From an uncultured bacterium (GTDB lineage Bacteria; UBP15; UBA6099), in assembly GCA_964409645.1 (NCBI GenBank), contig CAYPEK010000006.1, forward strand, positions 16,823 to 80,822: a DNA stretch of 64,000 bases, given 5' to 3'. Of the stretch, positions 3,305 through 47,567 are shown in pieces. Each line of letters begins with the position of its first letter. The first letter of the stretch is position 1. The position numbers and the translations under genes were made by a program. Below the pieces are notes generated by a model, which saw only the letters and a list, made by a program, of their open reading frames with translations, was not told where the DNA came from and did not search any database.

Positions 3305-3379
3305 AAGGCAATACCTCCGGAGCGCTCGCGTGCCGCCCCGGGCTGGGCGGCGCGCCGGCCGGCGCTCTTTCCAATACTT

Positions 3380-7828: not shown

Positions 7829-7860
7829 GCGGGGTATATCCTTTTCCTTATTTTATTTTC

Positions 7861-8883: not shown

Positions 8884-8884
8884 T

Positions 8885-27062: not shown

Positions 27063-27312
27063 TGATCGCTCCTGTCAGATATGTTGAGAAAGATTGTACC
27101 ACAAAGTAGTCATGCCGCGCTTGCTTGTGCTGAGTAAAATCATCAGGAACTCCTTCAAACAAACTCGATGACGGCACAGAATTCGTGGATAGCCGCAAAA
27201 TGGAATGAAAAGGCATTTTATTGCATTTTCCGGATTCGTGATTATTTATATTCTATAGTTATCATTAACCGGAGAGCGCGGCGGCGGACACGCTGTGCCG
27301 CGCGGCGAGACA

Positions 27313-28742
27313 GTTTGAAAATAAGATTCGTTCACATACCGAAAAAGATATACCGGCGAGGCAAGCTCGCGGGATATTTCATAACGATCATGCCGCTGGG
27401 ACTGCTGCCGATGGCGGAGATACTGAAGCGAGACGGTCACGACGTCGAGATCGCGCACGCCGGAAACGAGGAGCAGTTCGACGCCGGATTCAGCGTGGAG
27501 AAATATGTGGAGGACGAAGGCGCGGAGCTTGTGTGCCTGCCGCTGCACTGGCACCAGCAGACGTACGAGGTGCGTGAGGCGCTGAAGAGGATCAAGGTTC
27601 GCACGCCGAAAGTGAAAACCGTTCTCGGCGGGCTGACCGCGTCGTGGTTTGCCGCCGACATAATCAATGAATGGCCGGAAGCGGATTACGTGATCCGTGG
27701 CGAGGGCGAGAAGCCGCTGAAGGAACTCGCGGAGGCGCTCGCGGAGGGAAAGAAGGATTTGAGCGGCGTTCCGAACCTCGTGTGGCGAAAGAGAGGCCGG
27801 ACGACAGAGAACAAGGAGATATACGTCGCGGGGCCGGGCGATCTCGCGGAACTGGTATTCACGGACAGGTCGCTGATACGCAACCATGAGAAATACACGG
27901 CGCACTATTACTCTAACCCGGAGAAGGAAAAAACGGGCGAGTCGTTCCACCACCCGCTGCACTATCTCTACATAGGGCGCGGATGCACGGCGGACTGCGC
28001 ATTCTGCGGAGGCGGCGTCGGAGCGCACAAGCTGATAGCGAACCGGGACGGAGCAATCTTCCGCGATCCCGACGCCGTTTACGAAGACATTAAGACAACG
28101 TACGAGAAATACGGGATAACCGATTTTTACGCGTGCTTCAATCCACCGGGAACGGACAACGGTTATTTCACGCGCCTCTTCGACAGGATCGGTCGCTCCG
28201 GGATGGACGTCTCGATGGTTTTCGAATATTACAACGGCGTGCCGGATGAGGCGTTCATTGAAGCATTCGCATCCGCGTTCAATAAGTCGGAATCACGGAT
28301 AGCGTTTTCGCCGACGTCGTTCAGCGATGAGTGGCGGCCTTGTTTTTATCCGCCGGGGATAACAGACACGGAGCTTGAGACGGCAGTGAAAAACATCTCG
28401 AAGCATGGGATTCAAACGCTCCTCTACTATGCGCTTCTGCCGAGCGAAACGGAGGGCGACATCCACGACGGATTGAGTCACGCGATGGATTTGCGAAAGA
28501 GACACGCGTCCACGATGAGGATATTCCCAATCGAGATGGAACCGGCGTCGCCGTGGTCGCTCGCGCCGAAGAAATACGGCATTTCGCTGAAACGCAAAAC
28601 GCTCGCGGACTATCTCGAACATCACGCGCGGGGCACGGACGGATTCGCGAAGTCGGACCTCGGATACTCATTCCCCGGCTTCGGGTCGAGCAAGCAGGTG
28701 TTCGACCTGCTGGCGAGATTCACCACCCGGCTGTACGAATGA
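27313..28742 (+). CDS. B12-binding domain radical SAM protein (class B radical SAM)
   Basis: The N-terminal Rossmann-like B12-binding region is IMPLGLLPMAEILKRDGHDVEI. The radical SAM cluster motif is GRGCTADCAFCGG (CxxxCxxC). The likely start is TTG at 27313 (LKIRFVHIP...), because no ATG precedes the B12 domain. Confidence 0.75.
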
Positions 28743-30535
28743 GGCGAAGTCCGAAAAAAACAAATGCGAAACAAAGCATAAAGACTTGCGGAAAAGAGAA
28801 TACAACGACAATGGCGACAGAGAATAACGTTTTTTCAAAGCGACTTGCGGCGGCGGCCATCCTGATTCCGGTAGCGGCGGCCGTGCTGGTGTTCTTCAAC
28901 TCTCTTAACGGCAATTTCGTTTACGACGACAACTCAATCGTCGTGAACCAGCCGCTTGTGAAGGACCTCTCCGCGCTGGGCATTGCGGATATTTTCACCC
29001 ACAAGGACCTCAGCCGCTCCTCGCCGCACTACCTCCCGGTCAGGCTTATCAGCTATGCGATCGATTACCGCTTATGGAAACTGAATCCGCTCGGATTCCA
29101 CCTGACGAACCTGTTTCTACATGTGCTGAATGTCATCTTCGCGACACTATTCGTTGCGTCGGCGGCAGCGGCGGCCGGGATCAAGGAAAGGAAGAACGTA
29201 TGGCTTGCGGCCGGAGCAACGGGACTCCTGTTCGCGGTGCATCCGCTGCAATCGGAAAGCGTTGCATGGGTATCTGGCCGCAAGGAACTGCTGTGCACGG
29301 GTTTTCTGCTGTGCGCGGCTCTTTGCTATCTGTCGTCGCTGAGACGTCCAGTCTCTAAGAAAACCGACTGGGCAATCCCGTCGGGTCTCGTGTTTTTCAC
29401 GTTGGGAATACTCTCGAAAGCGACGGCGGCGGCGTTTCCGCTCGCGCTTGTTGGGTTCGAAATTTTCATGCAGCCCGGAGAAGGCCGCGCGAAGACGGCT
29501 CAGAGAGCCAAACGGTTTGTGCCGTTCCTCATTGTGGATGCCGTCATCGTTTATATCGACATGAAATACTCGGCACAGGCCGGGATGATAAAAGAAGTAG
29601 CCTCAGGCTCGCTTGCGGCACACTACCTGACGTGCGCCGCCACTCCGCTGCTTTACATAGGCAAAGCGTTCTGGCCCGCGAAACTGAGCGTGGAGTACGG
29701 AACAGCACTGAGTCGTGGAGAGTTGATGCGGCTCGCACCGGCGGCGGTTTTGTTCTGGGGAGGGCTGGTGTTGTTATGGACGAAATACAGGAAGAGACAA
29801 GGCGCCGCGGCGGCGCTGGCCGCGTGGGCGGTCGCGGGGCTGCTGCCGGTTATCAATCTCGTACCCTCGACAAAACTGATAGCGGACAGGTATTTCTACC
29901 TGCCGTCGATCGGGCTGTTCGGGGCGTTGTGTATTGCTATTGCGCAAATCAAAGGAAAAGCGCCGAGGATCGCCACAGCCGTTATTCTTGTCGCCGCGGC
30001 GTGCGCTTTCGGGTTCCGCGCGGCGGAGCGGAACTTAGACTGGCGGAATGAGATGACGCTCTGGAGTTCAGCGATGCGTTTCGAGCCCGATCATCCTCTG
30101 GTGCTCCAGAATCTAGCGTACGCATATTATCTTGATAAAGATTACGTGAAGGCGGAAAAATATTACAAAGCCTCCATAAAAAGAGATCCGAAAAATGTGC
30201 CCGCATACGTCAACCTCGCCGTTCTGGAGTACGTGGCATGGAAACGCACGGACGAAACCATATCTCTTTTGCAGCAGGCGGTGCGTCTGGACCCGAAGAA
30301 CATTCCGGCAAGGATAAATCTGGCTATGGCTTACTATTCAAGCGGAGAATTTCAGGCCGCCGTGGATGAAATGATAAGCGCGATAGACAATGATCCCGGA
30401 AATATTCTTCTCGTCAGGAAGTTGTACGTTTTGACAAATACGCTGAAAAGCAAACATTTAAGATTTGTCATTCCGAAGGAAACCATAGACCGCATAAACG
30501 CACTTATAAAAGATTCACAAAAGAAGAAACGCTGA
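28739..30535 (+). CDS. TMTC-like membrane protein: multi-TM N-terminal domain (DUF1736-type, FVYDDN motif) plus C-terminal TPR repeats
   Basis: The ATG at 28739 overlaps the upstream TGA as ATGA. NGNFVYDDNSIVVNQP is the hallmark of TMTC / O-mannosyltransferase-like proteins. About 9 TM helices are followed by TPR repeats (AYAYYLDKDYVKAEKYYKASIKRDPKN...). Confidence 0.75.
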   Translation: MRRSPKKTNAKQSIKTCGKENTTTMATENNVFSKRLAAAAILIPVAAAVLVFFNSLNGNFVYDDNSIVVNQPLVKDLSALGIADIFTHKDLSRSSPHYLPVRLISYAIDYRLWKLNPLGFHLTNLFLHVLNVIFATLFVASAAAAAGIKERKNVWLAAGATGLLFAVHPLQSESVAWVSGRKELLCTGFLLCAALCYLSSLRRPVSKKTDWAIPSGLVFFTLGILSKATAAAFPLALVGFEIFMQPGEGRAKTAQRAKRFVPFLIVDAVIVYIDMKYSAQAGMIKEVASGSLAAHYLTCAATPLLYIGKAFWPAKLSVEYGTALSRGELMRLAPAAVLFWGGLVLLWTKYRKRQGAAAALAAWAVAGLLPVINLVPSTKLIADRYFYLPSIGLFGALCIAIAQIKGKAPRIATAVILVAAACAFGFRAAERNLDWRNEMTLWSSAMRFEPDHPLVLQNLAYAYYLDKDYVKAEKYYKASIKRDPKNVPAYVNLAVLEYVAWKRTDETISLLQQAVRLDPKNIPARINLAMAYYSSGEFQAAVDEMISAIDNDPGNILLVRKLYVLTNTLKSKHLRFVIPKETIDRINALIKDSQKKKR

Positions 30536-30604
30536 AGCGCGGCGGATTGAGAAAGACAGCGCCGTTTTTATAATACGAAGTGGAGAACGTCGGGTTCGGC
30601 GTAT

Positions 30605-31663
30605 ATGAAAAAAGAAAAAAGCAAATCGGGTATCAGCAGACGGCAGTTTCTCGGCGGCGCAGGCGCGGCGTTGATCGGGCTCGCCGCTCTGCCCGAAATC
30701 GGCCGCGTGTTCGGAGTTGATACAGCGGGCGCCGCTCTGTCCGAAAATTCAAAAAGCAAAACGAAACCGGGCGGACGCGGTGTTGTAGTGATCGCCCGAG
30801 ACAAAAGCATCTGGGACGGCGACAAACTTAATCGCGATAAGGTAAATAACCTAGTTTTCAAGGCGGTGCGCGCCCTCTCGGGAGCGTCCGGCGACGAAGC
30901 CGCATGGAAAACATTTTTCGACAGCGGCGATTCGGTGTCCATCAAGATGAACTGCATCGGCGGGAAATGGATGTCAACGACTCCCGCTGTGACGGAGGCG
31001 ATAATCACGGGCATCCTACTCGCGGGCGTGCAGCCGCGAAAGGTGATGGCGTGGGACCGCACTCAATGGGAAGTCCGCAACGCCGGTTACAAATACGGAA
31101 GCGACAAACGCGGCGTGCGTTTTATAGCGACGGACGACGACGATATCAGATACGAAGGTGATCTCTCCACGTGGGGCGAGGTCGGCTCGCTCGTAAGCAG
31201 AATCGCGGCGCGGCTCAGCACGGCGATGGTGAACGCGCCCGTGCTGAAGGACCACGATATGACAGGCATTTCCTGCGCGCTGAAGAATTGGTACGGGGCA
31301 ATCAACAACCCGAACAAGCTGCACGAGAATGCGTGCGATCCGTACATCGCCGACCTCAACATGCTGCCCGTGTTCCGTGACAAGACGAAGCTGATCGTCT
31401 GCGACGCGACCACCGGCCAGTACAACGGCGGACCGTCGCACAAGCCGAAATATACGTGGCGTTACTCAGGTGTGATAGCCGGGACGGACCCGGTGGCAGT
31501 GGACACGGTTGCGCATCGGATAATCGAGGATAAGCGAAAAGCGGAAGGCTTGAAATCGCTGAAAGCCGAGGGCCGCCCGCCGACATTTCTCCAAACAGCC
31601 GGCGACGGCAGGCACAAGCTCGGCGAGAACCGCTATGAAAAGATCAGGATCATCGAAGTGTGA
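30605..31663 (+). CDS. DUF362 domain protein with N-terminal twin-arginine (Tat) signal
   Basis: SRRQFLGGAGAALIGLAALP matches the (S/T)RRxFLK Tat consensus. The remainder resembles the DUF362 family (PF04015). Confidence 0.75.
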   Translation: MKKEKSKSGISRRQFLGGAGAALIGLAALPEIGRVFGVDTAGAALSENSKSKTKPGGRGVVVIARDKSIWDGDKLNRDKVNNLVFKAVRALSGASGDEAAWKTFFDSGDSVSIKMNCIGGKWMSTTPAVTEAIITGILLAGVQPRKVMAWDRTQWEVRNAGYKYGSDKRGVRFIATDDDDIRYEGDLSTWGEVGSLVSRIAARLSTAMVNAPVLKDHDMTGISCALKNWYGAINNPNKLHENACDPYIADLNMLPVFRDKTKLIVCDATTGQYNGGPSHKPKYTWRYSGVIAGTDPVAVDTVAHRIIEDKRKAEGLKSLKAEGRPPTFLQTAGDGRHKLGENRYEKIRIIEV

Positions 31664-31691
31664 AGCAGGCCCGTGCGAGTCGGACGCGGGG

Positions 31692-32822
31692 ATGACGCGG
31701 CGCGAGTTCATGGGACTCTGCGCGTGCGCCTGCGCGCTTCCCGCGGCCGCCGTGCTGCTGTCCGCCGCGGAACCCGCTTTTGCCAAACCGCAATCCACAC
31801 CGTCACGCGGCACTGAGCATGAAGTAGCCTTTTACGACAAGCTGCCGGAAAAGATGATCCGCTGCCAGATATGCCCGAAGAAATGCAGGGTCGGCGACGC
31901 CGAACGCGGCTTCTGCGGCAACAAGGAAAACCACAGCGGAAAATACGTGACGCTCGCCTACGGCAATCCGTGTTCGGTGAACAACGACCCGATCGAGAAG
32001 AAGCCGCTGTTCCACTTTCTGCCGGGGACGACTGCGTTCTCGCTCGCGGCGGCAGGCTGCAACTTCGACTGTAAATTCTGCCAGAACTGGGAGATATCGC
32101 AGTCGCGGCCGGAGCAGACACGCACTTACGACCTGTCCCCCACGCGCGTTGCCGAGGTGACTAAGCAGGCCGGAAGCAAGACGATCGCTTACACGTACAG
32201 CGAGCCGGTGGTTTTTTACGAATATATGTACGACTGCGCGGCGGCAGGCCGGAAGAGCGGGCTGCGCAGCGTGATGATCTCGAACGGTTACATCAACCCG
32301 AAGCCGATGAAGAAACTCTGCGGTGTGCTCGACGCTGTGAAGATCGACTTCAAGGCATTCACGGAGGATTTTTACGCGAAGCAATGCCTCGGCCACCTTC
32401 AGCCGGTGCTGGACACGCTTGTGTTGCTGAAAAGCGAGGATATATGGTTCGAGATGGTTGTACTCATCGTTCCGGGGCTCAACGACAAGGCGTCCGAATT
32501 TAAAGATATGGCGCAATGGATTGTGAAGAATCTCGGCAAGGACGTCCCGATTCATTTCTCGCGGTTTCACCCGATGTACAAGCTCAAAAACCTGTCGCCG
32601 ACACCGATAGAAACGCTCGAAACGGCGTACTCGGCCTGCAAGAAAGCCGGGCTGAATTACGTCTATCTCGGAAACGTGCCCGGTCACAAAGCGGAGAGCA
32701 CGTACTGCCCGAAGTGCGGCAAGCCGGTGATTCAGCGCTATGGATATGTGGTTCAGGCGATCAACATGACCGGTGGACGCTGCATGTTCTGCAAGACGCC
32801 GATCCCCGGCGTATGGTCGTGA
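31692..32822 (+). CDS. Radical SAM enzyme of the AmmeMemoRadiSam-type architecture, with an apparent N-terminal Tat signal
   Basis: TRREFMGLCACACALPAAAVLLSAAEPAFA is a Tat-like leader. An N-terminal Cys knuckle (CQICPKKCRV...GFCG) precedes DPIEKKPLFHFLPG. The radical SAM motif is GCNFDCKFCQNW, and the C-terminus has two Cys pairs, CPKCG and CMFCK. Confidence 0.8.
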   Translation: MTRREFMGLCACACALPAAAVLLSAAEPAFAKPQSTPSRGTEHEVAFYDKLPEKMIRCQICPKKCRVGDAERGFCGNKENHSGKYVTLAYGNPCSVNNDPIEKKPLFHFLPGTTAFSLAAAGCNFDCKFCQNWEISQSRPEQTRTYDLSPTRVAEVTKQAGSKTIAYTYSEPVVFYEYMYDCAAAGRKSGLRSVMISNGYINPKPMKKLCGVLDAVKIDFKAFTEDFYAKQCLGHLQPVLDTLVLLKSEDIWFEMVVLIVPGLNDKASEFKDMAQWIVKNLGKDVPIHFSRFHPMYKLKNLSPTPIETLETAYSACKKAGLNYVYLGNVPGHKAESTYCPKCGKPVIQRYGYVVQAINMTGGRCMFCKTPIPGVWS

Positions 32823-32890
32823 GCAGCCTCCACAAAGTTTGAACATCTCTGTGCTTTTCGCGGTTGCGCGCGTCTGATAAAATAAGTCTC

Positions 32891-34048
32891 ATGTCAAAAA
32901 CAAAAGTAGCTATTGCGAAATGCGGTTCGTATGTACCGGCCGAAGTCTGCGCGGCTGTGGACGCTCTTCTGGCACGGCTCGGAGGAATCGAGAAGTTTGT
33001 GAAACCGGGAATGCGAGTGTTCGTGAAGCCGAACCTGCTTCTGGCCGCATCGCCGAATAAGGCGTGTACAACACATCCGGAAGTGCTGATAGCGGTGATC
33101 AAACGGCTTCAGGCAGCGGGAGCAGAGGTATCGTTCGGCGACTTGCCGGGCGGTTTCCACGCCGGGAGCACGCGGAATGTACATCGCACATGTGAGATGA
33201 CACAGGTCGCGGAGGCAACAGGCGCGGAACTCGTGACGATAGAGAAACACGGGTTCAAAGAGATCGTGATCCCCGGCGCGAAGAAGATGAAGCGCATCCA
33301 CGCGCCGCTAAGGCTCGACGAAGCGGACATGATTGTAAATGTCTGCAAGATTAAGACGCACATGCAGACGATGATGACGGGCGCCGTTAAAAATATGTTC
33401 GGGATGACGACGACGCAGGACAGAATTGTGGCGCACAGATTTTCCGGCTACCGAGAATTTTCGGAAGCGCTGGTCGATATTTACTCCGGGCTGCCGAAAC
33501 CGTCGCTCAATATAGCGGACGCGGTGATCGGGATGGAAGGCACCGGTCCGTCGCAGGGCAAACCCGTTAAGCTCGGCTACCTGCTCGGCTCGGAGGACGC
33601 GGTCGCGCTGGACACAGTGGCGGCAGCGGCGATCGGATTCCGGCCGGAGGAGATCGCAATGATCGAGTCGGCGCGGCGGCGCGGCATCGGCACGGCGCGG
33701 ATGCACGATATCGAGATCGCCGGCGACTCGCTCGACTCGGTCAAAAAGCGGGTGCGCAGGCCGTCATCGGCGGTGTTCATGATGATGCCGGTTCTCACCA
33801 ACCCGTTCAACGAACTGACAAAGGTGCAGCCGTACATTGCCGCTAAGGAATGCAAGGCTTGCAAGAAATGCGCGGAGGTTTGTCCCGGCAATGCTATATC
33901 TTTTCCCAAACACGCGGGTGTGATAGACGAACGCCGCTGCATCCTCTGTTATTGCTGCCATGAGATATGCCCATACAGCGCGGTCGAATTGAAGAAGCCG
34001 ATACTCGTTAAGCTGGCTGAAAGGTTCATATCGCATGAAAGCCGGTAA
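32891..34048 (+). CDS. DUF362 domain protein with C-terminal 2x[4Fe-4S] ferredoxin domain (cytoplasmic; no signal)
   Basis: A DUF362-like body (VFVKPNLL..., KTHMQTMMTGAVKNMFG) is followed by CKACKKCAEVCP and CILCYCCHEICP ferredoxin motifs. The first ATG is at 32891. Confidence 0.8.
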   Translation: MSKTKVAIAKCGSYVPAEVCAAVDALLARLGGIEKFVKPGMRVFVKPNLLLAASPNKACTTHPEVLIAVIKRLQAAGAEVSFGDLPGGFHAGSTRNVHRTCEMTQVAEATGAELVTIEKHGFKEIVIPGAKKMKRIHAPLRLDEADMIVNVCKIKTHMQTMMTGAVKNMFGMTTTQDRIVAHRFSGYREFSEALVDIYSGLPKPSLNIADAVIGMEGTGPSQGKPVKLGYLLGSEDAVALDTVAAAAIGFRPEEIAMIESARRRGIGTARMHDIEIAGDSLDSVKKRVRRPSSAVFMMMPVLTNPFNELTKVQPYIAAKECKACKKCAEVCPGNAISFPKHAGVIDERRCILCYCCHEICPYSAVELKKPILVKLAERFISHESR

Positions 34049-34994
34049 TAACGTGACAAATAATAATAACGCGACAGTTTACGACTGCGTCGGGCTTGGG
34101 TTGTGCGTAGCCGACTACCAGTGTCTGCTCGATCACTATCCGGCAGCGGACGAGAAAACGGTTGCTGTAAAGCATATCCATCAGGGCGGCGCGCCGGTGG
34201 TGACGGCGCTGGTGTCGCTCGGAATATGGGGCCGCAAAACGGCGATGATCGGGATGGCGGGCGACGACGACGACGGCCGTTTCATAACGAGTGAGATGGA
34301 GAGTTACGGAGTGGATGCGTCGCGCGTGATTCTATCCAAGCACACGGAAACAAAGAAGGCGTTTGTGTGGATAGACGCGTCGAAAGGCAGCCGCGCGGTG
34401 GTGCTCTGCGGCGACCGGTCGCTGCCGCTTCCGGCGCGGGCGGCGGCGGAGAAGGCCCTGCCCCGCTGCCGTGTGTTTCACACTGACGGGCGCGAGACGG
34501 CAGTCGCGATCAAAGCGATGCGGCTCGTCAGGAAACGCGGTGGACAAACAGTGATCGACGCGGGCAGTCCGCGCGAGCGCATGGACGAACTGTTCTCGCT
34601 CTCGGATCACTTCGTGGCGTCGCACTCGTTCATGCGGAAGTTCTTCGGGGCGGGAATAAAACCTGAAAACGCGCTCGACAAAATCCTCGAACGCGGCCCG
34701 AAAGTCGCGCTGATCACTCTCGGCGAAAAAGGTTGCATCGGAGCAACCGAGGACGGCATGTTCCGCGTGCCGGGATTCAGCCGCAAGGGGTTCATCGTGG
34801 ACACGACCGGCGCGGGCGACGTGTTCCACGGCGGCTATATCCAAGGACTGCTTAGCGGCCTGCCGCCGGAGCGCTGCGCGGAGTTCGCCAACGCGGCGGC
34901 GTTCCTGTCCTGCGGCGAAATCGGCGCACGGGCGGGAATCCCTTCACTCAGGCAGATTACGGCGCTTATCAGAGAACGAAATTCCAAGAAATAA
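34035..34994 (+). CDS. PfkB-family (ribokinase-like) carbohydrate/nucleoside kinase
   Basis: The C-terminal anion-hole motif is DTTGAGDVFHGGYI, and the N-terminal GG dipeptide region GAPVVTALV is present. It overlaps the upstream gene by 14 bp. Confidence 0.85.
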   Translation: MKAGNNVTNNNNATVYDCVGLGLCVADYQCLLDHYPAADEKTVAVKHIHQGGAPVVTALVSLGIWGRKTAMIGMAGDDDDGRFITSEMESYGVDASRVILSKHTETKKAFVWIDASKGSRAVVLCGDRSLPLPARAAAEKALPRCRVFHTDGRETAVAIKAMRLVRKRGGQTVIDAGSPRERMDELFSLSDHFVASHSFMRKFFGAGIKPENALDKILERGPKVALITLGEKGCIGATEDGMFRVPGFSRKGFIVDTTGAGDVFHGGYIQGLLSGLPPERCAEFANAAAFLSCGEIGARAGIPSLRQITALIRERNSKK

Positions 34995-35108
34995 TCCTCG
35001 AACACGTAAGGCGCGTTTCGGTAACTTCATTATTATTGATGCGACGAAAATGATATAATTACCACGGCTGAGAAATAATCGGAAGCATAACGGGGCGGAG
35101 GACGGAAT

Positions 35109-37637
35109 ATGAAATTAACAAAAAAACCTGACGCAACAATCGTCGAAGGAAAACAACTGCGACTGACGATCACTCCCCTCGAAAACGGCGGCGTTTGTTA
35201 CGACATCGCCGCGCGCGAAAAAAACGGCTGGGTGACGGTTCTCGGCTCGGAACGTTCGACTGTGGCCGCGAATAAGAACACGAAAGGCTGCGGGCAGATG
35301 ATGCGAACCTCGCGGCGAATTATCGAGTTCCCGCAGGAACTCGTGTCGGCGGAGGCGAAGAACGGCATCGCGACTGTTATTCTGCGCGGAAAGGCGGACG
35401 GCCACACCGCCGAGCAGAAGATGACATTCGGCGACAATGACTCGTACATCAATGTTGTATCCACCGTTAAGCTCGGCCACCCGTCGAGGATCGCCGCCGC
35501 GGGCACGGCGCACGTTTTCATACCGGACGGGATGCTGTATTCGCAGTATGAACCGCTCGACTTCTGCTGGATACCCCATCTTCGCCGACTTCCCGAACAC
35601 ACGATCGGAGACCACGTTTTCAGGTCGCCCGCCGTGATATTCCAGTCTGGGAAAATTATGGGAGCGATCGTTCCCGACCTCGACGTGCTCGCGAAGAACC
35701 GGCCGATGCCGACCGCGCTCGACGCGAGGCTCGAAATACCGGGCATGCCCGCGCCGGCGTTCTGGTACGGTTTCTGCCGCTACAAGATCGACGGTCACGT
35801 ATTTTTCAAGCAGGACGAGCCGGGACGCAAGCCTTGCAAGGGCGATCTTGTGTACGGGTACGATCTGTTGGCAGGCGCGGACGAGCCGGAACGGCACGCG
35901 CACCGCAGGGTGGCAAAGCATCTGTGGGATCGGTACGGTGCGAAGCTGATCCGCAACGTCGAACCGCAGACGGTAACTTACGACGAATACGCGCGGCGCG
36001 CTTATGGGTTTGCGTTCGACCGCGGTAAAATATGGCGGGAGTTCGACCTCGGCGGTAAACGCGCGGGCGGCACGGTCTCGGTGACTTTCGCCGGCCCGGC
36101 GAAAACTAAGTTCATGAATCACGGCGAAATCGAGCGGATGCTGAAGATGCAGAAACTGATCCCGGGCATACACGGCGCGGCGACGGACAAACTTCTGCAA
36201 ACCGAATTCGCGAATGACGCTCTCGAATTTATCGTACATAACACCACAATAACGGCCCCTCCGCACATTCTGAATCAGTCGTGGTTCTGCAATCTACGGA
36301 CGGCATACGGGGCATTCGCCTATTCGGAGAAGCTCGGCAACGCTTCGCTCAAGGATTACGCATTGAAGATGAAAGAACTCGCACTGGGAGCACCCGGCGA
36401 CCTCGGATTTATGTACTCCGACTGCTACTGCCCGGACGACGGCGATCCGATATGGATGCAGGGAATGAAAGCGTTCGAGGCGGTCCGCGATTACCACTTG
36501 CCGGACAACGCGTGGACGGGCTGGTGGATGCTGCGCTGGTACGAAGAACTCGAAAAAGACGAGCGGCTGCTTGAACGCGCGAAAGCCGTCGGCGACGCGC
36601 TGGCGGCCTCGCAGCTCGAAAGCGGCGCGATCCCCGGCTGGGTGCGGGTGAGGCGCGGCGTGCCGACCGCGGGGGCGACGCTACGCGAGAGCGCGCAGAC
36701 GGCCGCGCCGGGGATGTTCCTCGCGAGGCTGGCGCGAGTGACCGGCGAAGCAAAATATCTGAAAGCGGCCGAGAGCGCCGCTAAGTTTCTGATCGACAAC
36801 ATATTCCCTGATAACATCTGGTGGGACTACGAAACATTCTTCTCGTGCTCTAAAAAAGATGTCGGAATGAAGGACGCCGGAACGGGACTGCACTGCATGA
36901 ACAACCTCTGCATATTCTGGACGGCGGAGATGATGCGCGAACTCGCGGACAAGACAAAGAAGAAAACATATCTCGAACATGGGCTGCGCGCGCTCGACCT
37001 GATGATCCTCTGGCAGCAGGCGTGGGACCCGCCCTATCTTTCCATCAACGGGTTCGGCGGGTTCGGCGTGATGAACACTGACGGCGAATGGAACGACGCG
37101 AGGCAGAGCATGTTCGCGGAATGCCTGACGGCGTACTACGAGCTGACGGGCGAGCGCGAGTATTTCGAGCGCGGGGTGGCGGCACTGCGGTCGTCGTTCA
37201 CAACGATGCTGATTCCGGAAAACCGTGCGGTCGCCCCCGGCAACATGAAAAGGTTTATCGCGAAGGACGAAGGCGCATCGTACGAGAATTACGGCCACCT
37301 CGGGTTTGACCGATGCGCGCCGGGATATCTGATGTTCGACTGGGGGAGCGGCGGAGCGTGCAGCGCGGCGGCGCGTCTGACCCGCAGGTTCGGCGATATA
37401 TACATCGACGCGGCGCGCGGAAACGCGTTCGGGCTCGACCTGTGCACGGCGGTGAAGTACAAGACCGGCGAAGGCTCGCTGTCGCTCGAAATCGACGCCC
37501 CGCATAACGACGGAAGAACTCTCATGCTGAAAGCCACGGGTTTGAAACAAGGAAAATACAAGCTCACGGTCAACGGCGCCGCGCGCGGCACGCATACGGC
37601 GGCAGCTTTGCGGGACGGTATAGATGTAGAGCTTTGA
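35109..37637 (+). CDS. Large hypothetical protein (842 aa), possibly an (alpha/alpha)6-toroid glycoside-hydrolase-like fold
   Basis: GGAGGA lies 7 nt upstream of the ATG. There is no signal peptide. The Trp/Tyr-rich C-terminal half (WTGWWMLRWYEELEKDERLLERAKAVGDALAASQLESGAIPGW) is reminiscent of (alpha/alpha)6 hydrolases. No catalytic motif is confidently identified. Confidence 0.55.
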   Translation: MKLTKKPDATIVEGKQLRLTITPLENGGVCYDIAAREKNGWVTVLGSERSTVAANKNTKGCGQMMRTSRRIIEFPQELVSAEAKNGIATVILRGKADGHTAEQKMTFGDNDSYINVVSTVKLGHPSRIAAAGTAHVFIPDGMLYSQYEPLDFCWIPHLRRLPEHTIGDHVFRSPAVIFQSGKIMGAIVPDLDVLAKNRPMPTALDARLEIPGMPAPAFWYGFCRYKIDGHVFFKQDEPGRKPCKGDLVYGYDLLAGADEPERHAHRRVAKHLWDRYGAKLIRNVEPQTVTYDEYARRAYGFAFDRGKIWREFDLGGKRAGGTVSVTFAGPAKTKFMNHGEIERMLKMQKLIPGIHGAATDKLLQTEFANDALEFIVHNTTITAPPHILNQSWFCNLRTAYGAFAYSEKLGNASLKDYALKMKELALGAPGDLGFMYSDCYCPDDGDPIWMQGMKAFEAVRDYHLPDNAWTGWWMLRWYEELEKDERLLERAKAVGDALAASQLESGAIPGWVRVRRGVPTAGATLRESAQTAAPGMFLARLARVTGEAKYLKAAESAAKFLIDNIFPDNIWWDYETFFSCSKKDVGMKDAGTGLHCMNNLCIFWTAEMMRELADKTKKKTYLEHGLRALDLMILWQQAWDPPYLSINGFGGFGVMNTDGEWNDARQSMFAECLTAYYELTGEREYFERGVAALRSSFTTMLIPENRAVAPGNMKRFIAKDEGASYENYGHLGFDRCAPGYLMFDWGSGGACSAAARLTRRFGDIYIDAARGNAFGLDLCTAVKYKTGEGSLSLEIDAPHNDGRTLMLKATGLKQGKYKLTVNGAARGTHTAAALRDGIDVEL

Positions 37638-37656
37638 ACTCGGCCGGAGGTGACAA

Positions 37657-38796
37657 ATGACATCTCGCGAACGCGTGAAAGCCGCGGCGAAGCGCAAGCC
37701 GGTGGATAAGATTCCGCTGATGCTCTGGCTCGAACCGCACACGACGTTGAAGCTTGCCACGGGGCCGATGCCGCCGCGCAATCCGCTGTACAGAGGCGTT
37801 TTCGACGGACTGCGCCTGCTGAGCGACAACCTGCCCTCGAAGGAACTCCGCAACGGCGCGCCGCTGCTCGCTTACGCGGTGCAGGCGGATTACCAGCGCG
37901 AGCTCGGCGCGGACATCGTCGATTTCCACTTCTGCATCTACCCGCTGATGGTGAAGAACTTTACTCTGAACAGAGACGGCTTTTCGGTGACCGACATTTA
38001 CGGCGTAACGCGCGGCATGGGTGGCATGTACCTCGAATCGACGGGCCACCCGTGCGAAACGAAGGAAGCCCTCGACCAATACGTCTTCCCCGACCTGTCG
38101 AACCCGCTGCGATACTCGCACATCGCGGCCTACCGCGCGATGCACCCGGATGCGGCGATAGCGGTGATGTGCCCCGGCGTGCAGGACTGGTCGCAGCAGT
38201 GGCACAAAATGGAGAAGCTGTATGGCGGAATGATACTCTACCCCGACACGATCGAGCGGTTCTTCCGCAAAATGGCGGAACACACGCTTCAGATAATCCG
38301 CGGCGTGCTCCGCGCGGGCGCCGACATCGTTCTCATCGGCGACGATTACGGAACACACAACAGCATGTTGATGTCTAAAAAGATGTGGGAACGGTTTACG
38401 TTTCCGTGCCTGAAAATGCAATGCGAAGAGATACACCGGCACGGAGGGATCGCGATGCTGCATTCTTGCGGATTCGTCATGCCGTTACTGGATAAGATAG
38501 TCGAGGCCGGGGTGGACATGCTGCATCCGCTTCAGCAGACGGCGGGCAACGACCTATCGGCGGCGAAGGCCGCATACGGGGACCGGCTGACGTTTGTCAC
38601 CGGCTTGGACGTGATGACGCTTTCGACGGCCGGACCGGAGGAGGTGCGGGAGTCGATACTGGCGGCGGCGCGGGCGGCGGCGCCCGGCGGCGGTTTTGTC
38701 CTTTGCACGACAAATTATCTTCAGGTTGACACACCGCTGGAAAATATAGATGTAATGTTCAATACTATTAAAGATATACAGAACGGGAGGTTTTGA
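37657..38796 (+). CDS. Uroporphyrinogen decarboxylase (URO-D) family protein, MtaA/CmuA-like
   Basis: The URO-D TIM-barrel region is GADIVLIGDDYGTHNSMLMSKKMWERF ... MLHSCG. GGAGGTGA lies upstream of the start. Confidence 0.8.
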   Translation: MTSRERVKAAAKRKPVDKIPLMLWLEPHTTLKLATGPMPPRNPLYRGVFDGLRLLSDNLPSKELRNGAPLLAYAVQADYQRELGADIVDFHFCIYPLMVKNFTLNRDGFSVTDIYGVTRGMGGMYLESTGHPCETKEALDQYVFPDLSNPLRYSHIAAYRAMHPDAAIAVMCPGVQDWSQQWHKMEKLYGGMILYPDTIERFFRKMAEHTLQIIRGVLRAGADIVLIGDDYGTHNSMLMSKKMWERFTFPCLKMQCEEIHRHGGIAMLHSCGFVMPLLDKIVEAGVDMLHPLQQTAGNDLSAAKAAYGDRLTFVTGLDVMTLSTAGPEEVRESILAAARAAAPGGGFVLCTTNYLQVDTPLENIDVMFNTIKDIQNGRF

Positions 38797-38804
38797 GAAA
38801 CGCC

Positions 38805-39941
38805 ATGCCATGCAAAAGCATACTCACAAAAGTAATGATCTTCGCATTTCTGGCAATGTTCGTCGCGGCAGCGCCCGGATGTGCCAAGGAAACCACGGAA
38901 AAAAACAAGAGTAAGACCAAGACAACGGCTAAAAAGTCGGAGCCTAAAAAGGCAACGAGCCAGACCACGGAAGCCGAAGGCGCGTTCATCTACGGCAAGC
39001 AAGCGCCTGACATCAACGTGGTGGACGCCGGCGGCAAACCGATTTCTCTCGACGACTACAAGAATAAAACGGTCGTCCTCGTGTTCTGGGCCGCCGAGTG
39101 CGACGTCTGCAAAAAGCAGATTAAGGATCTCGAAGTCGGCATCTCGAAAAAGAAGAACGACGTAGCGATACTTGCAATAACGCAGAATGTGAATCCTGAT
39201 AAAAACCGGGACGCGGCAGACGAATTGAAAAAGTCCAGCAAGACGGCGGTCGCCTTGTTCGATACAAACAACCAGACGGCAACCGTATATCAAATGTCCG
39301 GAATCCCGTATTTCGTGCTGATCGACAAGAAAGGCCGTCTGTCCGGGTCGGGAGTTTTCTCGGTTACGCAGAAGCTGCAGAGCGACACATTTGTAAACGA
39401 CGTGATCACGATCGACAAAGGCGGAAAAATCAATCAGTGCGAGTTCGCCGAGCTCGCAACGCCCGAAAAATACGCGAAAATGATCGGCAAAGAGCCGCCG
39501 AATTTCAAGCTGACGGACCTCAACGGAAACGAGGAGTCGCCCCTGTTTTATAAAGGATTCACAAACCTGCTGCTGGTGTTCTGGTCGCCATCTTGCCCGC
39601 ACTGCCGGCGCGAGCTGCCGAGGCTCGAAAATTTATACAACAAAAAAGGCAAAGACCTTAACCTGAAAATAGTAAGCGTGGTGGGTGTGCCGGACAAGAA
39701 GGACAAAACATTCGACGAAATAGTGGCCACCGCGCGGCTGATCGCCCTGCAGGATAAGATCAGTTTCCCGGTGGTTCTGGACACCGGGATGAAACAGCGA
39801 GTCGCATACAATGTCGAGGGTGTTCCCTCCCTGTTTCTGGTGGACATGAACGGAAAAATTCGCAACGCGTGGAGCGGCGAATCACCCAACGTTGGAATGA
39901 ACATAGAGTGTGCGATCGAAGAAGCCGGCAAAGGCAGGTGA
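38805..39941 (+). CDS. Lipoprotein with two tandem thioredoxin-fold (TlpA/ResA-like) domains
   Basis: The lipobox is AAAPGC, preceded by GGGAGG about 14 nt upstream. Domain 1 carries WAAECDVCKK (CxxC) and domain 2 carries WSPSCPHCRREL (CPHC). Each domain has the TlpA-like LVFW / ...PxxFLID pattern. Confidence 0.8.
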   Translation: MPCKSILTKVMIFAFLAMFVAAAPGCAKETTEKNKSKTKTTAKKSEPKKATSQTTEAEGAFIYGKQAPDINVVDAGGKPISLDDYKNKTVVLVFWAAECDVCKKQIKDLEVGISKKKNDVAILAITQNVNPDKNRDAADELKKSSKTAVALFDTNNQTATVYQMSGIPYFVLIDKKGRLSGSGVFSVTQKLQSDTFVNDVITIDKGGKINQCEFAELATPEKYAKMIGKEPPNFKLTDLNGNEESPLFYKGFTNLLLVFWSPSCPHCRRELPRLENLYNKKGKDLNLKIVSVVGVPDKKDKTFDEIVATARLIALQDKISFPVVLDTGMKQRVAYNVEGVPSLFLVDMNGKIRNAWSGESPNVGMNIECAIEEAGKGR

Positions 39942-39942
39942 C

Positions 39943-42639
39943 ATGCCGGTGAGCGCGGAGAAAAAAAGCGGCAGCGGCGAAAATACCGCTCGCGCGGCGG
40001 AGCCCAACCGGAACCTGTGGTTCTGGACAGCGGGCGTTTTTCTCGCATCGGCCGCTTTCTATATCAAATCCGTTGCGCCTGATTTTCTCTTCGACGACAA
40101 CCCTGAATTCATAGCTACATCGCGGTATCTCGGCATCGCTCACCCTCCGGGATATCCGCTTATTTCGCTTATCGGCAAGCTGTTCTCTTACACCGCCCCG
40201 GGAACCGCGGGCATGCCGGTTAACCTGCTCTCCGCTTTCGCCGGCGCGGTTGCGGTCACTCTCGGATTCCTCCTCATATACAGAGCGACCCGCTGGATCG
40301 CCCCGTCGCTGATCGGCGCGGGAATGATTCTCACATCGAGGCTGTTCTGGGAACAGGCCGGTCAGGTGGATGTTTACGCCGTCAACGGCATGTTTTTGTT
40401 CGCAACCCTTCACTTGATCTGGAGCCTTGACCGATCGCGCCGGGACGCAGCGCGAATCATCGCGCTCTCGGCGATTTTCATTCTCGCCCTCTTCAACCAC
40501 TACACGATGGTGCTCGTTTTCCCTGCTTACGCCGTGTATATCTTCTGGCTTTACAGAAGAAGTTTCGACCGGCTGTTGAAGATAATTCCGACGGTTATAC
40601 TCGCGGCGGCGGTCGCGTTTTCGGTTCTTATGTATCTGCCGCTGCGTTCAGCGTCCGGCCCGGTGATGAACTGGGACGAGCAGACGAAAGTAAGCGATTT
40701 TTTTAAGCACGTGAAGGGAGTTGACCTGCGGACGGCTACGCCGCGCGTGCCTCTTGCGGTCAAGTGGCGGTTCGTCGAGGACTATGCGGTGCGCGCGTGG
40801 CAGGACAGATCGCCCGCGCTGCTCGTGTTGCTTCCTCTCGGTTTCTGGAGCCTGTTTAAAAAAAAGTCGGCGTTCGGCCGGCGGCGCGGCGCAATCGTCG
40901 CCGCATCGTGGTTCCTGCTATTCGCGGGCTATGTGCTGTTGCCTAACTATCTCTATGGGCCGCGCGCTTCGTACGTCGTGAAATCATTCCACAGCACATC
41001 GCTCATGATGCTCGGATTCATAATGGGGTTCGGCGCATTCGAAGCGTTGTCGCTCGTGAAGCGGGCAAAGCTCCCGTGGGGCGCTCTGGCCGCGGTCGCG
41101 GCGGTGCTGATCGGCCACTCGGCCCTTGCCGGCCGCTCGACGGCGGACCACGCAAACGACCTGATGGCGACTCGGTACGGCCGCAACATGCTGCTGTCCG
41201 CTTCAAGGGACGCGATTGTTTTCTCAACACTCGAGACGGAAACGTTTCCCATGATGAACCTTCGCGCCACACATTACCTTCGGCGCGACATCACGCTGCA
41301 CGGCAGACACGGAGACCCGCTGATCGCCGCCCTCGCCATGGGCCGCAAGGAACAATCCTACCTGCGAATAAACGAAGTGGCCGATATTCAGAAATATGCG
41401 CTTATCAGCACTATATATCAACGCCCGATATTCTTCACAAAGCGTCTGGATATTCAGGACCGCCCCGACCTTGCTGTCGTAACGAACGGACTTCTCTACC
41501 AGCTCGCGTTCGGCGGCAAACCTCTCTACTGGCCGGACCCGTGGCTGCGAATCGACCAGACAGGCATCGACTACAAATATAAGGGATATGACACAATCCA
41601 GAGGAATGTCATCAGCCGTTACCTCGTCATGCATGGAGAGCATTACCTCGAAATCGGACAGTGGGATGACGCTATAAACCTGTTCGACCGCGCGGCGGAA
41701 TTTAACCCCGGCTCACGGTTCCTGCGGGCAAACCTTGGAGCAATTTTTCTGCGGATTAACGACTTTAAGCGCGCGCGCAAGGAATACGAAGAAGGACTCG
41801 CCGCGGACCCGGAAAATGTCGAGACGAGCATAGACACGGTCGCGATGTACAGCAACCTGTCGTTTATATACGGCACGTTCGGCGAGAAGGACAAGGCGCG
41901 CGAAGCGATGGAAACCGCGGTGCGCCTCGACCCGGAAAACGGATTGCTTCGTGTCAACTTAGGTAAAACGTATTGGCATCTCGAGCGGTGGGTGGACGCG
42001 ATCCGTCAGCTCGAAGCCGCGAAGAAATACGGCATTACGGATAACGCCGCAGTCTATAATATTCTCGGAATCTGCTACGAAAAGATAGGCAAATACAAGA
42101 AGGCGGAGGAGAACTACGAGCTCGCGATCACTACAAACCCCGCGCTCGTGGATGTGTACAGAGACTACGGCGTCTTCTGCGCCTACATCAAAAATGATCC
42201 GAAAAAAGCAATCGAGTTGCTGAACATTTATCTCGAACTCGCACCCGGTGTTCAGGACGAGCCCGACATCAGGGTGAACCTCGGTTTTCTGAACAAAAGT
42301 GTGGGCAACTATCAAGCGTCGGCGGCGGCATTCAGGTCCGCCTTGCTTCTCGGCGCGGACACCACGCTGAGAAAAACGGCGATCATCTACACCGCGCTCG
42401 CGGACTCACTCGACAAGATCGACCTTCCCGCCGATGCAAAAGAAGCCTACGAGAAAGGCCTAGTCGGCACGGAAGACTATCCCAAGATTCTCGTCGAATA
42501 CGCGGACTTCCTCGACAGGCGCAAAATGAACACCGCCTACGCGCTGAAACTGCTCGACCGCTACATGACAATTTCTCCCAACCCGGAGGATAGAATCCGG
42601 GTCGATCTCCTTAGAGCAAAGTTGAAAGCCAGAAAATAG
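39943..42639 (+). CDS. DUF2723-type polytopic membrane protein (GT-C-like) fused to C-terminal TPR repeats
   Basis: The N-terminal third carries hydrophobic segments predicted as TM helices and the motifs FLFDDNPEFI and HPPGYPL typical of DUF2723. The C-terminal 350 aa are TPR repeats. The gene stops at TAG. Confidence 0.75.
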   Translation: MPVSAEKKSGSGENTARAAEPNRNLWFWTAGVFLASAAFYIKSVAPDFLFDDNPEFIATSRYLGIAHPPGYPLISLIGKLFSYTAPGTAGMPVNLLSAFAGAVAVTLGFLLIYRATRWIAPSLIGAGMILTSRLFWEQAGQVDVYAVNGMFLFATLHLIWSLDRSRRDAARIIALSAIFILALFNHYTMVLVFPAYAVYIFWLYRRSFDRLLKIIPTVILAAAVAFSVLMYLPLRSASGPVMNWDEQTKVSDFFKHVKGVDLRTATPRVPLAVKWRFVEDYAVRAWQDRSPALLVLLPLGFWSLFKKKSAFGRRRGAIVAASWFLLFAGYVLLPNYLYGPRASYVVKSFHSTSLMMLGFIMGFGAFEALSLVKRAKLPWGALAAVAAVLIGHSALAGRSTADHANDLMATRYGRNMLLSASRDAIVFSTLETETFPMMNLRATHYLRRDITLHGRHGDPLIAALAMGRKEQSYLRINEVADIQKYALISTIYQRPIFFTKRLDIQDRPDLAVVTNGLLYQLAFGGKPLYWPDPWLRIDQTGIDYKYKGYDTIQRNVISRYLVMHGEHYLEIGQWDDAINLFDRAAEFNPGSRFLRANLGAIFLRINDFKRARKEYEEGLAADPENVETSIDTVAMYSNLSFIYGTFGEKDKAREAMETAVRLDPENGLLRVNLGKTYWHLERWVDAIRQLEAAKKYGITDNAAVYNILGICYEKIGKYKKAEENYELAITTNPALVDVYRDYGVFCAYIKNDPKKAIELLNIYLELAPGVQDEPDIRVNLGFLNKSVGNYQASAAAFRSALLLGADTTLRKTAIIYTALADSLDKIDLPADAKEAYEKGLVGTEDYPKILVEYADFLDRRKMNTAYALKLLDRYMTISPNPEDRIRVDLLRAKLKARK

Positions 42640-46442: not shown

Positions 46443-47567
46443 TTATTCCGGCTCGAAACGCGAGAGGCGTCTGAGCGCGTCGAGCTGTTCCGTCCGGCCG
46501 AGTTTTGCATCGAGAACCGCTTTTTTCAGCATGGAGATCGTCTTATCATAACCGGGCCGGTCCACCGGATACGGGATGCCGTCCTTTCCGCCGTGTGCGA
46601 AGCTGAACCGCACGGGATCACGGAAGCTTGCCTCGTCGCCATAGAGGATTTCGGACAGCAGCGTGAGCGCCCGCAGCGTGGCCGGGCCTACGTTGGGAGT
46701 GCCGATCAGCGACACAAAATCGCCGGGCGCGCGTTCGTACGCGCTGACAAGCGTCTTTCGGATGCGGTCCGGATGGATGTCCGCGGCAAGTATCCGGTGC
46801 CGCGCGGGCAGGTTGAGCGCCTGCACGCGTTTGAGTTCCGCGACGAGCTTTTCAGGGTTTTCGAGCGCGATGTTCGCGGTACGCGCGCGGACCGCCGCGC
46901 TCTCCTCAGCCACGAGGTTCAGGGTGAGCTGGCCGCGCGAGTCGCAGCACACCGCCGCGTGCGGCTCGCAGACGAAATCCGAGACGTCCTCGCCGAGCCA
47001 GTGATACCGCCGCGCGTAACGCGTCTCTTCGTTCATGCCCTGCTGCACCACCACCCATCCGCCGTTTGACGTGAATGCGAACATGTGCTGGTATATCTGG
47101 TAGCCGTCCTGAACGGCGGCGCTATCCACTTTGGCCGACATGCGGCTTGCATAGACGAGCTGCGCGGCGTCGGCGGAGATCGAGTCGCCGGCGGCGATAA
47201 TCTCGTCGGGCGTTTTGCGGGACGCGCCACCCTTGCCGCCGCAGAAATACAGCCCCAGCTCTCTCTGAATGTCCTTTGTGCCTTCCTTGAGCGCGCCGCA
47301 GGTCGTGGTGGTCACACCGCTCGAATGCCAGTCGAACCCGAGCACGCAGCCGAGTGCCTGAAACCAGAACGGGTCCGCGAGCCGCTTCAGAACAAACTCC
47401 GGGCCGGACTCGCACACCATCGTCTCGACGATCGCCCTCGAGAGCTTCACCATCCTGTCGAACAGCCACCTCGGCGCTTTCCCGCCGTGCAGCGGTAGAT
47501 TCGCAACACCTGTTCGCGCCATTGCGCCCCCCTCTTTCATCCGAATTATAACTCCGGGGTGTGACAT
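46443..47567 (-). CDS. DUF763 domain protein
   Basis: ARTGVANLPLHGGKAPRWLFDRMVKLSRAIVE resembles the DUF763 N-terminus. The start is ambiguous: ATGs at 47567, 47540 and 47522, with the last preceded by GAGGGGGG. Confidence 0.75.
   Translation of the reverse strand: MSHPGVIIRMKEGGAMARTGVANLPLHGGKAPRWLFDRMVKLSRAIVETMVCESGPEFVLKRLADPFWFQALGCVLGFDWHSSGVTTTTCGALKEGTKDIQRELGLYFCGGKGGASRKTPDEIIAAGDSISADAAQLVYASRMSAKVDSAAVQDGYQIYQHMFAFTSNGGWVVVQQGMNEETRYARRYHWLGEDVSDFVCEPHAAVCCDSRGQLTLNLVAEESAAVRARTANIALENPEKLVAELKRVQALNLPARHRILAADIHPDRIRKTLVSAYERAPGDFVSLIGTPNVGPATLRALTLLSEILYGDEASFRDPVRFSFAHGGKDGIPYPVDRPGYDKTISMLKKAVLDAKLGRTEQLDALRRLSRFEPE

Follow-up and report, generated by a model that had tools for sequence, protein, structure and literature searches.

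Can radical S-adenosylmethionine (SAM) chemistry take place outside the cytoplasm? Catalysis by radical SAM enzymes depends on SAM, on a low-potential electron donor and on an oxygen-sensitive [4Fe-4S] cluster. Each of these is considered a resource of the cytoplasm, where, to our knowledge, every characterised radical SAM enzyme works. The question is raised by three adjacent genes, here called A, B and C, in a 64,000-nucleotide stretch of DNA from an uncultured bacterium (lineage UBP15; UBA6099; GenBank assembly GCA_964409645.1, contig CAYPEK010000006.1, positions 16,823 to 80,822). We refer to this whole 64-kb stretch as the window and number positions from its first letter. Gene A (30605-31663, + strand) encodes a 352-residue DUF362 protein with a leader of the twin-arginine translocation (Tat) type. 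Gene B (31692-32822, +) encodes a 376-residue radical SAM enzyme of the AmmeMemoRadiSam family. Gene C (32891-34048, +) encodes a leaderless DUF362 protein joined to a 2x[4Fe-4S] ferredoxin. An earlier note, made from the letters of the window, had described three co-directional genes with short gaps. An open reading frame (ORF) scan found all three on the same strand at these coordinates, with gaps of 28 nt (A to B) and 68 nt (B to C). Genes A and B turn out to be a pair whose synteny extends over hundreds of (uncultured) bacterial species.

AmmeMemoRadiSam is a computationally defined system of a radical SAM enzyme (TIGR04337), AMMECR1 (TIGR04335) and Memo (TIGR04336). The earlier note had assigned gene B to this type from its cysteines. 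Profile hidden Markov models (HMMs) bear out the assignment. TIGR04337 scores gene B at 385.5-385.7 bits against a cutoff of 220, over model positions 3-333 of 349, and all 34 aligned gene B homologues also match. Models for activases of pyruvate formate-lyase (PFL) and other glycyl-radical enzymes remain far below their cutoffs (TIGR02493, 49.7 against 231.75; TIGR02494, 34.4 against 174.35), and an activase was rejected as the identity of gene B. No glycyl-radical enzyme was found among the annotations of the window. The cysteine layout is that of AmmeMemoRadiSam enzymes, with N-terminal CxxCPxxC...C, CX3CX2C and C-terminal CPxC...CxxC. The radical SAM cluster motif, C123-N-F-D-C127-K-F-C130 (32058-32081, +), is invariant in the 34-sequence alignment. 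Gene B thus keeps its CX3CX2C motif, and the N-terminal and C-terminal Cys4 motifs are intact as well; the invariant cysteines are C58, C61, C65, C75, C123, C127, C130, C339, C342, C364 and C367. Conservation of Y-x-x-P, of the Q-N that follows the cluster motif and of all eleven Cys ligands is as high in the group of enzymes predicted to be exported as in the cytoplasmic group. Hence, with all catalytic residues retained, the group predicted to be exported does not have the look of a degenerate or repurposed scaffold.

The AlphaFold2 (AF2) model of gene B is a confident one, with a pLDDT of 89.8. In this model the leader is a short helix, and residues 16-39 are of low confidence or disordered. 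The core is closest to the PFL-activating enzyme (3cb8/3c8f; TM-score 0.78-0.80 on target), which is the nearest solved fold. Searching the PDB by sequence with gene B returned the same enzyme only, at E = 2e-4, and no close relative is solved. Homologues are also labelled "PFL activating enzyme" by JGI. Unlike that enzyme and other activases, gene B has extra Cys4 modules at both ends and an export-type leader.

The TIGR04337 match begins at residue 47 of 376. Hence, the approximately 45 residues before it extend, at the N-terminus, an enzyme that is canonical in other respects. The ORF itself opens at 31635, where it overlaps the end of gene A; translation probably starts at the ATG at 31692, which gives MTRREFMGLCACACALPAAAVLLSAAEPAFA followed by KPQ. 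A public gene call, P0001 (376 residues, 100% identical), starts at the same ATG. The predicted Tat signal peptide (31692-31784, +) is recognised by conservation of its twin arginines (RR) and comprises MTRREFMG, an 18-residue uncharged hydrophobic (h-) region and AFA, then K. Gene A opens with MKKEKSKSGISRRQFLGGAGAALIGLAAL, in which the twin-arginine motif S11-R-R-Q-F-L-G17 (30635-30655, +) can be read directly. Both proteins passed a Tat motif test, with S-R-R-Q-F-L-G in gene A, T-R-R-E-F-M-G in gene B and an uncharged stretch after each. A Tat-leader heuristic applied to every six-frame ORF of at least 120 residues from the window was passed by genes A and B alone.

Both leaders had been pointed out in the earlier note, and comparison with homologues supports them. 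Among the 120 closest homologues of gene B (54-75% identity), approximately 110 carry an RR leader of the [ST]-R-R-x-F-[LIVM]-K type, conserved in frame across phyla. Those lacking it look N-terminally truncated. Labels of the RR-bearing homologues include KSB1, Latescibacteria, Desulfobacterota, Omnitrophota, Schekmanbacteria and Caldithrix. Across 34 diverse homologues R3 and R4 of gene B are invariant; the h-region is free to vary in sequence and length. The picture is similar for gene A, a DUF362 protein by its match to PF04015 (79.5 bits, cutoff 24). Here RR is found in 111/120 of the closest DUF362 homologues, and R12, R13 and F15 are nearly invariant across the alignment of A-type DUF362 proteins. 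At the related loci, RR followed by at least 12 uncharged residues occurs in 65/76 radical SAM orthologues and in 12/544 background ORFs (2.2%). As judged from these sequences, the predicted leaders of genes A and B are above chance and are conserved clade-wide.

A census of gene neighbourhoods was proposed in the earlier note. We ran it as a genome scan with one genome per species, in which at least 597 stretches were confirmed as relatives, and analysed the best 80 loci. These span approximately 15 phylum-level lineages and include Zixibacteria, KSB1, Aminicenantes, Acidobacteriota, Planctomycetota (including Scalindua), Latescibacterota, Poribacteria, Thermodesulfobacteriota and others. At 57 of the 74 loci whose upstream DNA was long enough, the radical SAM gene is directly preceded, on the same strand, by a gene for an A-type DUF362 protein. 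What is conserved is the A-B pair rather than the trio. No DUF362-radical SAM fusion protein was seen among the long family members scanned.

Within the pair, both partners bear RR at 34 loci, as they do in the window copy. A leaderless DUF362 protein of approximately 298 residues stands beside a radical SAM enzyme with a textbook leader at 24 loci by regular expression, or approximately 23 after removal of one long-ORF miscall. Most of these are Aminicenantes and Zixibacteria. This single-leader pattern suggests that the two proteins come together ahead of export, in the manner of a hitchhiker. Tat hitchhikers, such as the small and large subunits of [NiFe] hydrogenase and DmsAB, are exported as cofactor-loaded, folded proteins. 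The lineages in which only the radical SAM enzyme keeps RR resemble these complexes, and Tat export of heterodimers is described (PMC10924467). The hitchhiker arrangement differs from that in the window and at the 34 loci with leaders on both partners, and an A-B complex here would be a presumed one.

Next to the pair, relatives encode further proteins. Partners were counted at 37 fully flanked loci, within 6-8 kb on either side, by ORF clustering followed by HMM annotation. The most frequent is a polytopic membrane protein of approximately 711 residues with a central spermidine-synthase domain (PF01564; 23/37). A DUF6599 gene is present at 15/37 and a Memo-AMMECR1 fusion of approximately 510 residues (TIGR04336 plus TIGR04335) at 13/37. 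A NapH-like Fer4_5 membrane ferredoxin accompanies the pair at 13/80 loci. The full cassette occurs in three contigs resembling Acidobacteriota (L084-L086), in the order NapH-like protein, DUF6599, DUF362, radical SAM enzyme, Memo-AMMECR1, spermidine-synthase membrane protein (reverse strand) and a second DUF362. The spermidine-synthase membrane protein, the NapH-like protein and DUF6599 were not found in the window by phmmer against six-frame translations.

The Memo-AMMECR1 fusions start with Sec or lipoprotein-type signals, which have a hydrophobic core and no RR and occupy the 30-45 residues before the Memo domain. Passage of an iron-sulphur (Fe-S) enzyme through Tat and of cluster-free proteins through Sec is as expected if the whole set is extracytoplasmic. 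The membrane proteins of approximately 711 residues have 12-14 predicted transmembrane segments (for example L056:9132-11267; loci L006-L082). By a crude count of hydropathy and positive-inside residues, of low confidence, the spermidine-synthase-like domain lies opposite the K/R-rich loops in approximately 29/34 of them. If this topology is true, a second SAM-fold domain lies outside the cytoplasm.

For the family at large, an exhaustive phmmer search (E <= 1e-3) gave 7,802 cluster representatives. Three forms can be distinguished: leaderless proteins of approximately 335-350 residues, which start 10-20 residues ahead of the first Cys motif; leader-bearing proteins of approximately 375-395 residues; and fusion proteins. 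C-terminal fusions are of the type radical SAM-AMMECR1-Memo, of approximately 1,000 residues, and confirm the functional triad. N-terminal to the radical SAM domain we found DsbD_2; FMN_bind plus Fer4_5 (NosR/NapH-like); DsbD_2 plus FMN_bind plus Fer4_5; an anchor plus FMN_bind; a signal plus CBM_11; a signal plus a beta-propeller; and a signal plus Memo plus AMMECR1. In the FMN_bind fusions the motif for flavinylation by ApbE, D-x-[IV]-[ST]-G-A-T, is intact. In a neighbour-joining tree of catalytic cores, which is indicative only, Tat, signal-anchored and membrane-fusion forms cluster with one another and are separate from the leaderless ones. Modules that bind flavin mononucleotide (FMN), NapH-like modules and DsbD modules have been catalogued as electron carriers to extracytosolic redox enzymes (Meheust et al. 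2021, PMC8238504). Members of this radical SAM clade have these types of module fused to them or encoded beside them. The window differs in that none of them is encoded beside the pair. The main text of that catalogue does not mention "radical SAM", Memo or DUF362.

What might the DUF362 partner contribute? A-type DUF362 proteins share the invariant residues K114, N116, K215-D-H217, K227-N228, N235-P-x-K238-x-H240, G276-P277, D295 and D300. The alignment is without any invariant Cys, so an Fe-S cluster of their own is unlikely. In structure comparison the predicted model of gene A has a fold like that of LarA, which belongs to the LarA family of nickel-pincer-nucleotide (NPN) racemases and epimerases. 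On inspection of motifs in the alignment, the segment KDH217-DMTGISCAL-K227...H240 resembles EPH-FMAGYSGGR-K...H of LarA; in other words, KDH-x9-K...H parallels EPH-x9-K...H. The LarA residues are catalytic His174, cofactor-tethering Lys184 and Ni-binding His200. DUF362 and LarA (DUF2088) belong to one Pfam clan, CL0471 (PMC11770544). Unlike LarA, gene A is without the C-terminal domain, its region for the second catalytic His is unconserved and it carries a Tat-type leader. No larB, larC or larE gene is in view near gene A. The Lar_N (DUF2088) HMM has no match in gene A, and PDB sequence searches with gene A and its profile gave nothing meaningful. Hence, we treat gene A, on the strength of its model, as LarA-like in fold and not as a member of the LarA superfamily. 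At a related locus on a 3.17-Mb contig (L003:9796-13235), the approximately 600 bp after a DUF362-radical SAM pair lead to genes for a genuine homologue of LarA (E = 3e-103 against a solved lactate racemase), an Fe-alcohol dehydrogenase and a YdjC-like protein. Such closeness of a LarA enzyme to a DUF362 protein, its relative in fold, is suggestive.

We think it more probable than not, going by these conserved sequence features, that the A-B pair forms the core of an AmmeMemoRadiSam branch adapted to export and acting on the cell envelope. Both proteins would fold and take up cofactors in the cytoplasm before crossing the membrane via Tat. They would probably travel as a complex, since approximately 23 lineages keep a leader on the radical SAM enzyme only. 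Once outside, the radical SAM enzyme would work with the Memo-AMMECR1 protein exported by Sec, whose gene, if this genome has one, lies outside the window, and membrane partners would join them in acting on an envelope substrate. Electrons would cross the membrane through the NapH-like, FMN-binding or DsbD-like modules, which are separate genes in some relatives and fused to the radical SAM enzyme in others. More speculatively, SAM might be carried out bound and be regenerated, as in radical SAM enzymes of the aminomutase type, or might be available outside. The DUF362 protein may be a cofactor-bearing redox subunit or a substrate-handling one, and gene C might then be a cytoplasmic, ferredoxin-linked DUF362 paralogue. 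A more far-reaching form of this proposal, which we hold only tentatively, places a whole radical SAM system outside the cytoplasm: the radical SAM enzyme, the LarA-fold DUF362, Memo-AMMECR1 and the outward SAM-fold membrane domain. The holo-enzyme would leave via Tat, perhaps SAM-bound, and be re-reduced by NapH, FMN or DsbD conduits for radical chemistry on the envelope (lipid or cell wall). If true, this would be periplasmic radical SAM catalysis, of which we found no account in the searchable literature, and it would hint at the kind of substrate that has long been sought for Memo and AMMECR1.

Several observations weigh against the export-adapted branch. We know of no source of SAM outside the cytoplasm. 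No tat genes are encoded in the window, and neither Memo nor AMMECR1 was found in it by phmmer against six-frame translations. The earlier note had remarked on the missing AMMECR1/MEMO1 partners, which holds for the window; the same radical SAM clade adjoins fused Memo-AMMECR1 in relatives. The curated Tat HMMs stay below cutoff on the window copies and are not decisive for them. Gene A falls just below both cutoffs (PF10518, 16.9 against 22.7 bits; TIGR01409, 15.8 against 16.7 bits) and gene B has no TIGR01409 match at E <= 0.05. These HMMs are short and insensitive; at the same threshold, TIGR01409 finds 12/34 radical SAM and 19/42 DUF362 homologues. Three family members (P0289, P0244 and P0247) have their radical SAM domains behind Sec-like signals without RR, followed by Memo plus AMMECR1, CBM_11 or beta-propeller domains, and we know of no way in which Fe-S clusters could be loaded after Sec export. 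By analogy with NosR, fusions to FMN_bind and Fer4_5 may place the radical SAM domain on the cytoplasmic side. Hence, the clade may be membrane-associated and not uniformly periplasmic. Both the tree, which is unsupported, and the topology calls are crude. For gene A, an hhalign profile comparison of DUF362 with the LarA homologue was not significant, so the residue correspondence, which comes from motif inspection only, is a lead rather than a result.

How, then, might the leaders be explained without chemistry outside? The radical SAM enzyme could act in the cytoplasm as a maturase, on DUF362 or on its bound cofactor or substrate. The pair would be exported afterwards with the radical SAM enzyme inactive outside, its export being a by-product of complex formation or of quality control. 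We regard this as unlikely, although it needs neither SAM nor low-potential electrons outside. The tight A-B synteny and the one-leader pattern at approximately 23 loci fit a complex formed before export, and the core is nearest to the PFL-activating enzyme, which acts on a protein. Known radical SAM maturases also modify, in the cytoplasm, substrates that are exported later. The HXS system is an example of such maturation, with an effector described as periplasmic (PMC13128918). However, such a maturase leaves unexplained why Memo-AMMECR1, which is fused to the radical SAM enzyme in many cytoplasmic relatives, should be exported by Sec. It also leaves unexplained the fusion and linkage of the radical SAM enzyme to transmembrane electron-delivery modules. 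Moreover, TIGR04337 enzymes are widespread without any DUF362. Hence, DUF362 cannot be their general substrate.

It is less probable still that the RR segments do not export at all and are membrane tethers or chaperone-binding remnants, as in NarG, which would keep the enzymes at the cytoplasmic face. The sub-threshold Tat HMM scores of the window copies would fit this. So would the positive charges after the transmembrane segment of P0266 and the odd number of transmembrane segments after FMN_bind in the NosR-like fusions, by which some relatives seem to be anchored with the radical SAM domain facing the cytoplasm; what the clade has in common could be association with the membrane and not export. 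Yet the homologues have an invariant RR, then an uncharged h-region of 12-20 residues and often an AxA site, and known remnant signals of the NarG type have lost such RR, h-region and AxA features. The leader is an add-on, N-terminal to where leaderless homologues begin. Its Ala/Gly-rich h-regions are typical of Tat signals and would make poor stable membrane anchors, and the partner proteins bear ordinary Sec signals. A proofreading or remnant leader had been put forward in the earlier note; with the RR motif, the h-region and the export signals of the partners all maintained, we consider it unlikely. The same note had allowed for a true start of gene B downstream of the RR, in which case the motif would be untranslated or a product of chance. 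Several in-frame ATGs (M1 at 31635, M20, M26 and M74 of the long ORF) and a weak Shine-Dalgarno-like sequence before 31692 would permit this. However, more than 100 homologues from many phyla, at 54-75% identity, conserve the leader as protein and in frame. The next ATG past it (M55) would cost gene B the conserved segment E-x-x-[FY]Y-x-K-L (E44 and L51), which leaderless homologues keep. The adjoining gene A also has the same leader feature. A downstream start was therefore rejected, and we give an artefact of this kind hardly any weight.

The export-adapted branch that we favour differs from AmmeMemoRadiSam as defined in several respects. The gene B clade adds a twin-arginine leader and a DUF362 gene directly upstream. 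Memo-AMMECR1 in this clade is one protein with a Sec signal, and spermidine-synthase-like and NapH-like membrane partners and DUF6599 are further additions. The association with AMMECR1 and Memo that defines the system is absent from the window; it is present in relatives, where a Memo-AMMECR1 protein is adjacent (13/37 loci, L084-L086). Already known are the TIGR04337 family, which is named and uncharacterised, and the AmmeMemoRadiSam triad as a computational association. In the searchable literature, with Burroughs et al. 2019 outside its scope, we found no description of a radical SAM enzyme with a Tat leader, of an obligate-looking DUF362 partner, of an exported Memo-AMMECR1 fusion or of links to extracytosolic electron modules. 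Nor did that literature hold a named maturation system matching the trio, a possibility raised in the earlier note.

Gene C appears to stand apart from the pair. Its ORF opens at a TTG at 32864; the likely start is the ATG at 32891, and there is no leader. PF04015 scores it at 178.4 bits, and the 2x[4Fe-4S] ferredoxin (Fer4/Fer4_7) occupies residues 323-373 at the C-terminus, in agreement with the leaderless DUF362-ferredoxin fusion described in the earlier note. Against the Npun_F2552 family HMM it reaches 153.7 (cutoff 500). We conclude that gene C is a generic DUF362-ferredoxin fusion. A second DUF362 of its type is found at only approximately 13/80 loci, usually with an RR leader of its own and without the ferredoxin domain, and gene C was therefore rejected as a conserved member of the cassette. 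The second DUF362 of related cassettes is nearer to gene C than to gene A (6e-17 versus 2e-9).

The run of genes continues, as noted earlier, into a PfkB-family sugar kinase (34035-34994, +; PF00294, 136.2 bits) that overlaps gene C, ending at 34048, by 14 bp. For this kinase all NCBIfam equivalogs are below cutoff. PfkB has no homologue in 83 related loci or in the contig of a closer relative, and so was not retained as a conserved cassette member. It is probably co-transcribed with gene C and lies outside the conserved cassette. A promoter-like site, TTGAGA-16 nt-TATAAT (30547-30574, +), lies 30 nt 5' of gene A. This is a pattern match only, with 11/12 consensus positions, and is the top-scoring site of a consensus scan of 28000-39000. 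No + strand terminator-like site was found 3' of it before 35831. Hence, a single transcript covering A, B, C and PfkB is plausible.

Beyond the kinase and in the same direction as genes A-C are an 842-residue protein without family assignment (35109-37637, +; sub-threshold GH76/GH47-like matches only), a URO-D/MtaA-like protein (37657-38796, +; URO-D, 87.5 bits) and a double AhpC-TSA/thioredoxin-like protein (38793-39941, +). The first two are not syntenic in related loci and were rejected as cassette members. Polytopic membrane proteins ending in C-terminal TPR repeats are encoded at 28553-30535 (+) and 39910-42639 (+); the latter matches TMEM260-like protein O-mannosyltransferase. A TPR protein is also encoded 5' of the DUF362-radical SAM pair in a 69%-identical relative. 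Two genes 5' of gene A is a B12-binding radical SAM protein (27168-28742, +; TIGR04190, 164 bits against a cutoff of 500). An odd Arg-rich stretch opens the long ORF of this protein, so translation probably begins further in. A DUF763 protein (46443-47567, -; 436.8 bits) lies beside a carbamoyltransferase (NodU/CmcH-like, 44310-46127).

The window is otherwise ordinary chromosome of an anaerobe-like bacterium, encoding FtsZ, LeuRS, HypB/E/D and a hydrogenase-like sensor kinase. The kinase gene (5110-7140, -) specifies 676 residues with a 2x[4Fe-4S] region, Fe_hyd_lg_C (179 bits), a putative Fe-S domain, HisKA and HATPase_c. A domain like the large subunit of [FeFe] hydrogenase is thus joined directly to a histidine kinase. 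Two further hybrid kinases flank this gene, at 1863-4876. A cluster at 7160-10006 (-) encodes HypB-like (cobW), HypE-like (AIRS) and HypD proteins for [NiFe]-hydrogenase maturation, which implies an NiFe hydrogenase elsewhere in the genome.

Taken as read from sequence, a pair that recurs with export signals suggests radical SAM chemistry outside the cytoplasm. A broad clade with Tat leaders, exported partners and links to transmembrane electron conduits challenges the view that radical SAM enzymes belong to the cytoplasm only. It opens the questions of where SAM would come from, and how the cluster would be reduced, outside the cell. The clade also gives a new way to approach the biochemistry of Memo and AMMECR1, which are conserved from archaea to humans and whose human genes are linked to disease. 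An extracytoplasmic version would narrow the candidate substrates to molecules of the envelope. DUF362, a large family of unknown function, gains a specific partner and a testable hypothesis of a LarA-like fold.

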